DNA of 30,186 bases from Archangium sp. (GTDB taxonomy: Bacteria > Myxococcota > Myxococcia > Myxococcales > Myxococcaceae), in the NCBI GenBank assembly GCA_031367385.1, contig JANLPS010000256.1:1-30186 (forward strand), read 5' to 3'. The notes below the pieces were generated by a model, which saw only the letters and a list, made by a program, of their open reading frames with translations, was not told the origin of the DNA and searched no databases. Below are positions 14,816 to 18,658 of the stretch, piece by piece (position 1 is the first letter of the stretch; each line of letters opens with the position of its first letter). The position numbers and the translations under genes were made by a program.

Positions 14816-15844
14816 TCATGAATTCTCGCCGCGCCCGTGCGCGCTTGATGAAGTTTGGTGAATGCGGCGAGCGGGCGCGGGCACCACCCAGACCCTGCCA
14901 TGTGCGCACCTGAGTACCTGGTCATTTGGCAGCGCCGTGTCGCGTTGTTGCGCGGCCGCCAGCAGCACCTCGGCCACCAGTTCGCTGTCGAGCTCGAGGT
15001 CATGGGCGGTCAAGAAGAGCGCGACAACGCGGCGGGCGATGGGCCGCTCCAGCGTGCAGAGCGCAACCCGGTCGAGAGAACCGTCGTCGGCCCATCGAAT
15101 TCGCGCCAACGCGGCGGCCGCGTGCCGATTCAGCAGCTCGTCGTCTTCGCTCGCGAGCTCGGCAAAGCGGGCCATGGCGCGCGTGGCTCCGGGGGCTGCC
15201 GCTTCGATCACCGGCAGCACTGTTTGCCGAACTTTGACGCGTTGAAACCGCGGGTCGTCGTTCATGGCGTCGTGTACCCAGCTGGCTCCAAGCGCCTTGA
15301 GATAGGCCTCGATGTCGTCGCGCGACGCGAAAAGCAATGGCCTCGCGACGCCATCGGCCCGGGTGGTTCGAACCGCACCGACGCCGGTCATCGAGCTGCC
15401 ACGGCTCAGCCGCATCACCACGGTCTCTGCTTGATCAGAGGCGGTGTGCGCTGTGATCAGCCACGCCAAGCCTTGTTGCGCCTTGATCTGGAGCAACGCT
15501 GCATAGCGTGCGGCTCGGGCCCGGGCTTCGAGGGCGGGGCCCGGCGCGAGGTCGACCTTCGCAACCCGGGCCACGAGGCCCGCCGCGTCTGCCGCATCGA
15601 GCACGAGTCGGGCATCGGCCGCCGCCTCCGGGCGCAGCCCGTGATCCACCGTTGCGACTTCGCACCGGAGCGACAGCCGTGCTGCGACCCGGGCGAAAGA
15701 GACGAGCAGCGCCATCGAGTCGGCACCTCCCGAAACCGCCAGGAGCACACCGGTGCCCTCGAGGCCCAAGCGCCGGGCCGACCTGATCAGCGCCTGATCA
15801 AAGGCCTCAACCAGCTGATCTGTCTCGGGAATAGTCGGGATCAT
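14816..15844 (-). CDS. tilS: tRNA(Ile)-lysidine synthetase
   Basis: PP-loop AVSGGADS, VDHGLR, ARAARY, TAHTASDQAET and RPLL; canonical position upstream of ftsH. Confidence 0.95.
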   Translation of the reverse strand: MIPTIPETDQLVEAFDQALIRSARRLGLEGTGVLLAVSGGADSMALLVSFARVAARLSLRCEVATVDHGLRPEAAADARLVLDAADAAGLVARVAKVDLAPGPALEARARAARYAALLQIKAQQGLAWLITAHTASDQAETVVMRLSRGSSMTGVGAVRTTRADGVARPLLFASRDDIEAYLKALGASWVHDAMNDDPRFQRVKVRQTVLPVIEAAAPGATRAMARFAELASEDDELLNRHAAAALARIRWADDGSLDRVALCTLERPIARRVVALFLTAHDLELDSELVAEVLLAAAQQRDTALPNDQVLRCAHGRVWVVPAPARRIHQTSSSAHGRGENS

Positions 15845-15862
15845 TTTATGCTTGACGACGCC

Positions 15863-15890
15863 TTGCCGAAGAGGGTGGCGGTGTTATGAT
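15863..15890 (+). promoter_or_regulatory. Sigma70-type promoter with extended -10, driving the putative sRNA
   Basis: TTGCCG (15863-15868), 16-bp spacer, TGn-TATGAT (-10 at 15885-15890). Confidence 0.6.
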
Positions 15891-15896
15891 GTCTGC

Positions 15897-16027
15897 TCTA
15901 CCGGCCGTTGGTATTCGAGGGGTTTCGCCAGCGTTGCCGTGCACAATTTCTATGTTGGGCCCAGGGGTCCCCCCTCCCCCTCTGGGCTCACGGAGCGGGT
16001 CGGTTCGTCCGGCCCGTTCCTCTTTCT
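15897..16027 (+). ncRNA. Putative three-stem-loop small RNA with a C-rich loop
   Basis: SL1 at ~15902-15939 (bulged). SL2 at 15956-15990 has a 12-bp stem and loop UCCCCCCUCCC. SL3 at 15992-16020 has a 12-bp stem followed by UCUUUCU. A promoter lies upstream and there is no credible ORF. Confidence 0.65.
15992..16027 (+). terminator. Intrinsic terminator ending the putative sRNA
   Basis: GGAGCGGGTCGG-TTCGT-CCGGCCCGTTCC followed by TCTTTCT. The G-U pairs only work on the + strand transcript. Confidence 0.7.
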
Positions 16028-16060
16028 GGGGCGCTCTTCAAATCCGCTCGAAGGCGCCCC
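16028..16060 (-). terminator. 3' hairpin of the convergent 682-aa lipoprotein gene
   Basis: Minus strand reads GGGGCGC-CTTCGAG-CGGA-TTTGAAG-A-GCGCCCC, 7 nt after the stop at 16068. There is no U tract. Confidence 0.45.
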
Positions 16061-16067
16061 CCTCGTT

Positions 16068-18116
16068 TCATGGTTGAGCGGAGTACCACTGCACTGAGCC
16101 GATCGTCAGGTCCGGGCTGCATTGCAAGCTGCCGCCGGTCTGCCGGTACCCGAAGCGTGACACCTGGGGGCTGATCACCCGCCCCGTGCCATCGGCGCCC
16201 GGCACCGAGATGATCGGGGCTGGGGTGCCGCCATCAGGCAGAGACCCGATGGCTGAGTTGGCGGGCCAGGCGACGTCGGCGACATGGAGCACTTGGCACG
16301 GCGCTCCGATGGCGAGCAGATCAGGGGGCATCAGCATCTCGAGGGGTATGGTCTTGGCCGGGGCGATCGCGCCTTTGATGAAGAGCCGAACCACCGGCTG
16401 CGGAGCGGTGAAGCACTTACCGGTGCCGATGCCCGCGTCGCCAACGGGCGCAGAATCAGCGACGCAGCGTTGGGTCGCGCCGCAGCTGCAGGCCTGGCCA
16501 TCGCGGCAATCGACTCCGCCGTCGACGATGCAGCCAGTGGGCGCGCTGAGGCGCTGATCTTTGAAGTAGTGAACGTACACGCCGTAGGTGCATGACGCGG
16601 TCGCGCAGGCGGGGTCATTCTCGGGTGAGTTGAGTGAGACGTTTTCGAGCAGCGGGCCCGCGCCGGTGTCGTCGACGTTCAGCGTCGGGTCGTCAGAAGA
16701 GCCCGCTTGACCCCAGTCGAAGTTGAACCCCGCCCCTGGGTTGGCCTTGAGCGTGCTGACGGCGTACCCGTTGATGTCGCCCGCGGTCTTCGACGGAGCG
16801 TCGAAGAACGAGAACACCCCTGCAGCAGGGCGCACCAGATGAATGTCGAGATCGATGTCACCGAAGCCGGGCCACTGAAGCTGCGCCACCAGGTCTTGCT
16901 TGATCGCCACCGAGAACCGCAGCTGCACCTTGGTCTCGCGCTGCTGTGTGTCTTTCACCGAGAGCTCGAGCTGGTACTCACCGGTCACGACGGGTCGCAG
17001 CTGAACCTGCGAGGTCGCAGCGCCTGACAGCGAGAGCGCGGTGACCCCGGCCGGAGCGAGAATCAGCTTCCACGCATAAGTAAGGCCTGTGCGGCCATCT
17101 TCTGGGTCGCTGGTGCACGCCGAGACGGTGCTCGAATCAGAGATGGCCGAGAACACCGCGAGGTCGCCGGGGCGCACGTCTCGGGTCAAGGTGAAGTCGT
17201 ACCCCGTCACGGGCGGCACGAGCAGCGGGGCCCACTGCGCGGCGGAGCCATAGTCGCGGGGGCCATCACCGCTCGAGGGAGGGACCGCGCGCACCAGGTT
17301 CGCGCAGACCACCGGGGCCGCGTTCGGAGCCAGCGTGCCGCGCAGCTCGACCACCACTCGCGGGTGATCAGGGTCGTCTGACGCGATCACCAACTGCGCG
17401 GCGTAGGTCATCTGCGTCAACGCCGTGGGCTTGAACTGCAGCTGCAGGTTGCGCCCCTCTGAAGGCTCGAGCACCAAGCCCGCCGCGGGGAACATCGAGT
17501 TGCCGGCGAGTGAGAACGCCGCGGCGTCGGTGCCTTCGAAGGCGGCCTTCGAGATCGTCAATGCCACCGGGCCAGAATTGACCAGGTTCACGGTGGGTAG
17601 CTTGCTGGGGTCGACCGCCGCGGCACGGGTGAAGGGCTCCGCTCCGAAGTCGACGCTGGGGGGCAGCACCACGACCGCGTCGGTGCAGCCGCGCGCGGTC
17701 AAACACTCGGGCGTCACCTCGAGAATCGGCTTCGCGCCTTCTCCCACGAGGGCGATTCGCAAAGTCGGTGAGTCGGCGTCGGTACTCGTGATCACCAGCG
17801 TGCCCGTGTACGCCTGCAGCGCGGTGGGCGAGAACGTCACCACCATCGGGGCCGTGCCGAGGGCGTCGATCGAGGTGGGCGCGGTGCCCAAGGTGAAGCC
17901 CGATGCGTTTTCGAGCTTGGCGCTCGAGAGGGTGACTGGCGCATTCGTACGCGCCGCGAAGGTCAACGTGATCTGCGCGGAGGTGCCGGTTTTCACCTGG
18001 CCGAAGTCAGCGCCCACTGGAGAAACGCCGAGTGACGGGCGAATCTGGGTGACGTTGGGGCGACAGGTGCACCCACCGATCGAGAGAAAGAGCACTGAAA
18101 TAATCAGGTGGCGCAT
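16068..18116 (-). CDS. Surface lipoprotein with tandem choice-of-anchor-D/ASH-type Ig-like domains, a PKD-like segment and a Cys-rich C-terminal region
   Basis: Lipobox GGC; repeated DFG.V...F.PT....Y.G.L.I.S.D.D.P...L.G units; YAWKL..AP; DIDLDIHL and LNVDD..GP..EN motifs. Confidence 0.8.
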   Translation of the reverse strand: MRHLIISVLFLSIGGCTCRPNVTQIRPSLGVSPVGADFGQVKTGTSAQITLTFAARTNAPVTLSSAKLENASGFTLGTAPTSIDALGTAPMVVTFSPTALQAYTGTLVITSTDADSPTLRIALVGEGAKPILEVTPECLTARGCTDAVVVLPPSVDFGAEPFTRAAAVDPSKLPTVNLVNSGPVALTISKAAFEGTDAAAFSLAGNSMFPAAGLVLEPSEGRNLQLQFKPTALTQMTYAAQLVIASDDPDHPRVVVELRGTLAPNAAPVVCANLVRAVPPSSGDGPRDYGSAAQWAPLLVPPVTGYDFTLTRDVRPGDLAVFSAISDSSTVSACTSDPEDGRTGLTYAWKLILAPAGVTALSLSGAATSQVQLRPVVTGEYQLELSVKDTQQRETKVQLRFSVAIKQDLVAQLQWPGFGDIDLDIHLVRPAAGVFSFFDAPSKTAGDINGYAVSTLKANPGAGFNFDWGQAGSSDDPTLNVDDTGAGPLLENVSLNSPENDPACATASCTYGVYVHYFKDQRLSAPTGCIVDGGVDCRDGQACSCGATQRCVADSAPVGDAGIGTGKCFTAPQPVVRLFIKGAIAPAKTIPLEMLMPPDLLAIGAPCQVLHVADVAWPANSAIGSLPDGGTPAPIISVPGADGTGRVISPQVSRFGYRQTGGSLQCSPDLTIGSVQWYSAQP

Positions 18117-18230: not shown

Positions 18231-18431
18231 ATGTCAGGCACCGACAAGCGCAAGCAATCGCTGTATTTCCCCGAAGACATGCTCAAAGAGATTCAGGAAG
18301 AGGCGAACCGTCAAGATCGGTCGCTGTCCTGGGTTGTCCAACAAGCATGGAAAATTGCGCGTGAGCGCATCAAAGCGTTCCCTGCCGTCAATGACGTCAG
18401 TGGTTCGCCCGACCCGAAAGAGGAGCGTTGA
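18231..18431 (+). CDS. MXAN_4361/MXAN_4362-family (TIGR04563-like) small ribbon-helix-helix-like protein, copy 1
   Basis: MSGTDKRKQSLYFPEDMLKEIQEEANRQDRSLSWVVQQAWKIAR; GGAGA upstream of ATG 18231. Confidence 0.88.
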   Translation: MSGTDKRKQSLYFPEDMLKEIQEEANRQDRSLSWVVQQAWKIARERIKAFPAVNDVSGSPDPKEER

Positions 18432-18658
18432 TGTCGACTACCGACCATCGCAAGCAGTCCCTGTATTTCCCCGAAGAGATGTTGGGCGAGATCGAGCACG
18501 AGGCGCAGCGTCAAGACCGCTCCTTGAGCTGGATCGTGCAGCAGGCCTGGAAGGTCGCGCGCACTGACCTGCGCAAGATCCCTTCTCCCAACGATGTCTT
18601 CGACGCGAGCAACGCGGCGAACGCAGCGGCTGCGGCCGCCGCCAACACCCCTCGGTAG
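18431..18658 (+). CDS. MXAN_4361/MXAN_4362-family small protein, copy 2
   Basis: MSTTDHRKQSLYFPEEMLGEIEHEAQRQDRSLSWIVQQAWKVAR; AGGAG ribosome-binding site at 18421 and a TGATG overlap with copy 1. Confidence 0.88.
   Translation: MSTTDHRKQSLYFPEEMLGEIEHEAQRQDRSLSWIVQQAWKVARTDLRKIPSPNDVFDASNAANAAAAAAANTPR

Follow-up and report, generated by a model that had tools for sequence, protein, structure and literature searches.

The gap upstream of tilS in a 30,186-nucleotide stretch of Archangium sp. DNA (the window) holds a real, unannotated unit that lies beside tilS in most myxobacteria of the order. We think that it probably encodes a stand-alone, trans-acting anti-Shine-Dalgarno (SD) small RNA (sRNA) of a new family. 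Its main hairpin exposes a conserved, unpaired C-rich seed complementary to GGAGG, and the unit has its own promoter motifs and terminator without a conserved reading frame; these are among the features by which C-rich anti-SD sRNAs are recognized. An original prediction, made from the sequence of the window, had already suggested a stand-alone structured RNA on the plus strand, either a distant Pxr-like RNA or a new family; the conserved C-rich loop and the lack of a matching Rfam family agree with a new family. The RNA family is new and its mechanism is likely one that is already known. The locus comprises the following features.

14816..15844, minus strand: tilS (TIGR02432), divergent neighbor of the RNA, followed by ftsH, folP and glmM (all minus strand)
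15863..15890, plus strand: sigma70-type promoter, TTGCCG (15863-15868), 16 nt, TATGAT (15885-15890), with a predicted start near 15897
15910..15935, plus strand: second promoter, of ECF sigma type, GGTAT-N18-GTT, resembling the SigR/SigH consensus
15945..15951, plus strand: A/U-rich stretch before the hairpin, a candidate processing site
15954..16027, plus strand: conserved sRNA core of about 74 nt (z -5.3), seed hairpin plus terminator
15956..15990, plus strand: 12-bp seed hairpin with the single-stranded loop UCCCCCCUCCC at 15968-15978
15992..16027, plus strand: intrinsic-terminator hairpin with U-rich tail (12-bp stem at 15992-16020, tail UCUUUCU; z -5.6)
16028..16060, strand unassigned: further hairpin (z -3.4)
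16068..18116, minus strand: 682-aa Ig-like (choice-of-anchor D) gene, convergent, here between the RNA and cdbA
18231..18431 and 18431..18658, plus strand: cdbA and cdbB (TIGR04563), behind the convergent 682-aa gene

A conserved seed hairpin followed by a terminator

Folding recovered two of the three hairpins of the original prediction, namely the 12-bp stem-loop with its single-stranded C-rich loop (then called SL2) and the 12-bp terminator with its U-rich tail. The core fold reaches z < -2 in 33 of 34 diverse homologs, and our covariance model (R1) scores the core of the window at 79.7 bits, this core being part of the model's training set. Among 33 diverse sequences, 98.7% of the 396 cells of the seed stem are paired, versus at most 67% in slid controls, and 5 of the 12 pairs show two-sided changes. 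Shuffles did as well in 0 of 500 cases for cells and 7 of 500 for pairs, counts of a kind that kinship inflates. The 372 cells of 31 distinct seed hairpins include 66 G-U pairs versus a single A-C. Such an excess of G-U over A-C indicates conservation of the RNA type, on the plus strand, and bears out the suggestion that the stems favor the plus-strand transcript.

The loop reads U-C(6-8)-U-CCC in 31/31 distinct hairpins, a motif that the search pattern itself required. It shrinks to CCCCUCCCC in distant homologs that the covariance model recovered. Even the most distant homologs retain this core, which contains CCUCC, the exact complement of GGAGG; the stem varies, and the C run has anywhere from 4 to 8 residues. 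Because runs of 6, 7 and 8 do not differ by multiples of 3, a conserved reading frame is excluded. Two small plus-strand ORFs (15852-16097 and 15908-16174) were rejected as genes: they have no Pfam match and their frame is not conserved. The terminator varies freely in sequence and keeps its pairing; its loop is not invariant, as is normal for terminator loops. Its tail has just three Us in 69 of 136 first terminators. Neither a tRNA nor a tmRNA was found in the window, and no alternative anti-terminator fold was seen at the element. The Rfam check that the original prediction had called for, Pxr included, gave no match at gathering score in the window, where sub-threshold C-loop look-alikes alone were found.

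In the 7.97-Mb source genome the loop motif occurs once. The RNA is duplicated in tandem, with both loops intact, in two genomes from other families (L027:1498-1671 and L030:1496-1667). A hairpin similar to that at 16028-16060 (GCGCCC..GGGCG) is present in 84 of 135 homologs and is possibly a back-up terminator or the terminator of the convergent gene. This hairpin, the ECF-type promoter at 15910-15935 and the downstream plus-strand cdbA-cdbB pair had been overlooked in the original prediction.

The proposed bulged hairpin SL1 did not survive. The stretch at 15897-15953 is no more stable than its shuffled versions (z -0.24), a z below -2 was seen in just 2 of 24 leaders from homologs, and none of the 34 best BLAST matches extended back into it. 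The leader before the hairpin spans 56-177 nt and is not conserved. We therefore rejected SL1 as an RNA structure, since it is neither significant nor conserved; the stretch overlaps the second, ECF-type promoter. The three-hairpin, Pxr-like layout of about 130 nt is likewise unsupported: two hairpins are conserved, and the Pxr-like gene of this genome lies elsewhere. Just before the seed hairpin, the A/U-rich stretch shows as A in 49-51% of 138 loci at -11/-10 and as T in 58-61% at -8/-7.

Distribution among myxobacteria

A BLAST search with the gap found the core at E <1e-3 in 34 of 40 relatives. A pattern of the loop and the 3' arm matched at least 120 loci; 80 of them bear titles, among which are Myxococcus xanthus, Corallococcus, Pyxidicoccus, Archangium, Cystobacter, Hyalangium and Anaeromyxobacter. 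The pattern left the 5' arm unspecified; among the matches listed, this arm is complementary except in two chance matches and one locus cut by a contig end. We also searched 300 genomes of the phylum, one of them unpublished, with a shortened version of the loop pattern. It matched 171 of 194 genomes of the order, a count that includes chance matches (3 of 8 inspected order-level loci lack the hairpin and tilS). Elsewhere in the class it matched 2 of 3 genomes and, beyond the class, 3 of 103, where both inspected matches lack the hairpin and tilS. The covariance model recovered 11 of the 23 order-level misses, 10 of them beside tilS. Of the 3 other genomes of the class it found the element in 2, each time beside tilS, and in 0 of 19 genomes outside the class. 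SL2 and its loop, whose conservation upstream of tilS the original prediction had wanted checked, are kept in most genomes of the order.

Three small genomes (2.1-2.7 Mb) form a lineage of the source family in which the copy is strongly diverged, doubtful or not found. Viral contigs gave no match to the element. It also turns up, in myxobacterial gene context, in records labeled Comamonas sp. and Proteobacteria bacterium, and these labels are probably wrong.

A fixed place beside tilS, usually ahead of cdbA

Gene coordinates confirm the arrangement first described for this gap, divergent from tilS and facing a convergent gene. The RNA element lies in the 223 bp between the start of tilS (15844, minus strand) and the stop of the convergent 682-aa gene (16068, minus strand). 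We counted contexts in the 96 of 141 loci that have at least 900 nt on each side, leaving out duplicates, two chance matches (L067 and L143) and the locus cut by a contig end (L140). A divergent tilS lies upstream in 96/96 of these full-length loci. Downstream, 64/96 have cdbA on the same strand at a distance of up to 600 nt, the 682-aa convergent gene is the next gene in 25/96 (the window included), and neither is found in 7/96. The 682-aa gene seems to have been inserted into a tilS-RNA-cdbA-cdbB block that is otherwise constant. Since the unit is kept with an intervening convergent gene or without a nearby cdbA, it needs no downstream gene.

According to the available text of one study, the cdbA-cdbB pair has been reported solely from Myxococcales, with MXAN_4361/4362 as CdbA/B (PMC7156744). 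The M. xanthus copy of the RNA sits between MXAN_4360 and cdbA (RS21165 is tilS and RS21170 cdbA), at a derived position of about 5,367,555-5,367,633 in DK1622 numbering. The strongest MrpC ChIP peak of the M. xanthus genome, with cooperative FruA binding, is inside tilS at 5366818, and in the available text its authors assigned it no upstream gene (PMC4320627). From the positions given there, this peak is 736 bp upstream of the 5' end of the RNA, and a peak of rank 1375 is 45 bp upstream of it.

Two promoter motifs point into the unit

The TTGCCG-16-TATGAT promoter of the original prediction is present, one such site being found versus 0.1 expected. Across loci, a -10 hexamer of the form TAnnnT, from a set picked after the sequences were viewed, occurs on the plus strand in 66/96 and on the minus strand in 8/96, with a shuffle mean of 15. 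A TTG lies 16-18 nt upstream of this hexamer in 56 of the 66 loci, versus 8 of 66 when sought ten bases further. The extended TG exists in the source genome and is private to it (1/66), so that we rejected it as a conserved feature.

Most homologs have the second promoter as GGAAT-N17/19-GTT. A GGAAT-like box, a motif picked after viewing and widened to admit the GGTAT of the window (one mismatch to GGAAT), is present at -75..-30 in 114 of 138 loci, compared with a shuffle mean of 15 and maximum of 26. The GTT follows 22-25 nt after the start of the box, with a mode of 23. Farther out, at 100-150 nt before the hairpin, 36 of 138 loci have another GGAAT-like box, which exceeds the shuffle level of the near stretch and is possibly an additional ECF promoter.

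The consensus of SigR is GGAAT-N18-GTT (PMC2375139), and the second promoter has the form of the SigR/SigH (ECF12-type) regulon, the copy in the window with one mismatch. In 4 of 5 genomes we found a SigH/SigR-like sigma gene with a score of 175-195 bits, below the family cut-off of 251.55, and the SigH-like gene of the source genome is cut by a contig end. GGAAT-N17/18-GTT lies upstream of 3 of the 5 top SigH-like genes versus 0 of 5 other ECF genes; the M. xanthus and source copies showed no GGAAT-type promoter upstream. The ECF12 passages of two reviews do not tie ECF12 to myxobacteria, and our assignment hence rests on the SigR consensus and on the SigH-like genes and their promoters. From these we infer that a SigR/SigH-like sigma factor would read the second promoter.

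5' ends and expression in M. xanthus

Table S2B of a Cappable-seq study, of which we considered all 83 cdbA rows, lists plus-strand 5' ends at -287, -294, -301/-302 and -307 from cdbA (PMC8844925). The end at -287 is missing from the 0-h list; its scores are 32/16 (6 h), 30/39 (12 h), 24/18 (18 h) and 22/10 (24 h) (PMC8844925). Our mapping of these ends leans on the equal intergenic length, 455, in both strains. It places the ends 4-10 nt past the GTT box, in the A/U-rich stretch and, for the one at -287, one base before the conserved GUUGG at the hairpin base. The scores over the element are low by comparison with the main start of fruA (about 8000), and Cappable-seq cannot here tell whether an end marks initiation or processing. 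The predicted sigma70 site (-365) has no entry, but the rows considered reach -307 at the furthest, and the site may lie beyond the range of the table.

A stranded raw-read RNA-seq run of unstated condition shows no peak at the element: the sense depth is 17-29, like background, versus 500-990 over cdbA in the same run. Three other public runs consist of contigs and carry no expression level. Ordinary RNA-seq libraries lose short, GC-rich RNAs, and a developmental RNA would escape samples from the growth phase. Apart from tilS, no transcript starts or ends within 5367300-5367799 in a Rockhopper list of those newly detected in growth and predation (PMC9548883). Taken from the low-scoring 5' ends, the picture is that of a small RNA probably induced during development.

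A model of action and its candidate targets

The two promoters, sigma70 and SigR/SigH-like ECF, would produce precursors with variable leaders, possibly including a long one from the sigma70 promoter. Trimming at the A/U-rich stretch, or initiation there, would then give an RNA of 75-80 nt. Its rigid stem would present the C-rich seed without the help of Hfq, which M. xanthus lacks (TRIC-seq preprint, 10.1101/2025.09.11.675593). The exposed loop could pair with the G-rich SD sites (GGAGGG) of other mRNAs and block their translation, an HU-family nucleoid-protein mRNA being one candidate target.

Our genome-wide target scan used rough gene calls and compared start regions with coding controls. 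Pairing of start regions with the loop is weakly enriched at -14 kcal/mol or better (143 vs 81) and stands at 6 vs 8 at -18 kcal/mol. Duplex energies point to an HU-family mRNA as the best target lead, represented in the source genome by the following gene.

Contig C68, 25822..26091: HU/IHF-family gene with an unusually G-rich ribosome-binding site

Among HU-family orthologs, 16 of 20 reach a duplex energy of -14 kcal/mol or better with the loop, a lead chosen post hoc from the top of the pairing list and carried by orthologs that are kin rather than independent. The same threshold is reached by 0/24 groES, 0/28 rpsL and 5% of all source-genome genes. GGAGGG occurs in the ribosome-binding sites of 12/20 of these orthologs versus 52/6694 genes (0.8%) of the source genome. 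The pairing fails in both of the homologs from other families. The Pxr loop pairs with the HU-family start nearly as well, and HU could be a target of Pxr instead. A second lead is carD, with pairing in 9/28. The start regions of cdbA (3/48), cdbB (8/61) and ftsH (1/17) are not consistent targets, and a pattern-based target search in 5 genomes returned too many matches to rank.

Alternative explanations

The RNA could act by a different route, with its C-rich loop binding and titrating a protein, possibly the factor of the Pxr loop, or an RNA at a site other than an mRNA start. We consider this unlikely. The loop is near-invariant across the order, yet our target searches brought up none that is clearly conserved over that range; for Pxr, whose loop is similar, TargetRNA3 predictions mostly missed the regulated genes (PMC11928866). 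Against this, the C run itself varies while the core that is retained is the SD complement, no candidate protein was found in the present analysis, and Pxr makes contacts near SD sequences in TRIC-seq (10.1101/2025.09.11.675593). A cis-acting role is less probable still. The unit, transcribed from the upstream promoters, would then serve cdbA, an essential nucleoid gene, as a leader or attenuator, and the hairpins of the unit would control read-through, as the frequent position of cdbA shortly downstream on the same strand, the weak tails of the first terminators and the filing of the 5' ends under cdbA by Kuzmich et al. (PMC8844925) could suggest. However, unit and loop are intact in the 25 loci where cdbA is behind a 2-kb convergent gene and in the 7 without a nearby cdbA. 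Moreover, cdbA has its own starts at -44/-54 (PMC8844925), RNA-seq depth climbs just about 25 nt before its start codon, and an attenuator's alternative fold was not seen.

Finally, the element could function as DNA, either as a dyad bound by a protein or a C/G-tract, or as a pair of terminators insulating the tilS promoter, without any functional RNA. The missing peak in standard RNA-seq, the tilS promoter that always adjoins and the low-rank MrpC peak just upstream (PMC4320627) fit such a role. We regard it as very improbable, given that the substitutions in the stem are RNA-type and strand-specific, that two conserved promoters point into the unit, and that its invariant loop is unlike those of terminators, the neighboring one included, which varies. 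A trans-acting anti-SD sRNA is thus the reading that we prefer.

Novelty and implications

Full-text literature searches returned no paper on the tilS-adjacent RNA, and there is some chance, well short of even, that published lists of M. xanthus noncoding RNAs hold it as an uncharacterized entry. The available text of two reviews does not mention it (PMC8538405, PMC12288465). Pxr is the sole myxobacterial sRNA with functional studies that our literature searches found, and its targets were long unknown. A second, near-invariant sRNA in the tractable M. xanthus, with a Pxr-like seed and apparently opposite timing, would provide a direct test of Hfq-less riboregulation and of the origin of Pxr. 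Its position has practical consequences as well: promoter fusions and deletions made upstream of cdbA, beside tilS-ftsH, may have carried or removed the RNA.

Comparison with known systems

Cuckoo RNAs, RsaE/RoxS and RNAIII have C-rich seeds that pair with G-rich ribosome-binding sites. The cuckoo RNAs (ar14, RF02344; ar7, RF02342) are the best resemblance in Rfam, sharing a hairpin with a C-rich, anti-SD-like loop. Their model scores 16.3 bits in the window and 31.6 bits (E 3e-4) at the M. xanthus copy, for a gathering score of 58.8. Cuckoo RNAs carry CCUCCUCCC on several hairpins and belong to another phylum and context, whereas the tilS-adjacent RNA has one loop, C(4-8)UCCC. Membership was rejected on these grounds: the scores are below the gathering score, and CCUCCUCCC loops on two or more hairpins are absent. 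With RsaE/RoxS and RNAIII of Firmicutes, the RNA likely shares the UCCC seed mode, in hosts that lack Hfq or can do without it. It differs from them in having a single seed, and there is no sequence or model match and the hosts are unrelated. MXnc1 is an intergenic M. xanthus sRNA candidate that is reported to bind near the SD of several mRNAs (10.1101/2025.09.11.675593). Identity with MXnc1 or with the RS10995 candidate was rejected, as these adjoin MXAN_RS24205 and MXAN_RS10995.

The closest comparison is with Pxr, for which we draw on PMC5684412, PMC5568312, PMC10217877 and PMC11928866. The source genome has a Pxr-like gene of its own on another contig (C314, 14995-15102; 56.7 bits, E 1.2e-8). 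Together with the cdbA-cdbB pair, this gene marks the host as a myxobacterium, in line with the original prediction. Such genes are found in 22 of 24 genomes of the source family, with one weak match in 16 others. Just 4 of 41 genomes pass the Rfam cut-off for Pxr, and the RF01812 model thus under-covers the family. Identity of the tilS-adjacent RNA with Pxr was rejected: RF01812 has no match in the window (gathering score 80 bits) and reaches 19.5 bits (E 0.37) at the M. xanthus tilS locus, off the seed hairpin. Conversely, Pxr loci reach no more than 14 bits with the model of the tilS-adjacent RNA.

What the two RNAs share is a C-rich first loop, GGUUCCCCCCCACC in Pxr, where it is nearly invariant among Pxr-like genes, and GGGGUCCCCCCC(C)UCCCC in the tilS-adjacent RNA, similar without being identical. 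A C-to-A change in this first loop abolishes the function of Pxr (PMC5568312). Both also have the same hosts, an end at an intrinsic terminator and tandem paralogs in some genomes (PMC5568312). They differ in locus and promoter (downstream of pxrR/nla19 with a sigma54 promoter for Pxr, beside tilS with sigma70 and ECF-like promoters for the tilS-adjacent RNA), in structure (three hairpins with a bulged stem versus two with a perfect stem) and in range, which is narrower for Pxr and spans the order for the tilS-adjacent RNA, both coexisting in one genome. Their timing differs too: Pxr-S falls on starvation (PMC5684412), whereas the 5' end of the tilS-adjacent RNA appears then. One could speculate, and we do so with considerable doubt, that the tilS-adjacent RNA is an older, order-wide sibling of Pxr, possibly its ancestor, that starvation and stress induce, and that the two form a switch with shared G-rich targets, HU included. 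If this were true, the tilS-adjacent RNA would take over as Pxr-S disappears, and a switch of two sRNAs on one class of seed would set the entry into fruiting-body development.
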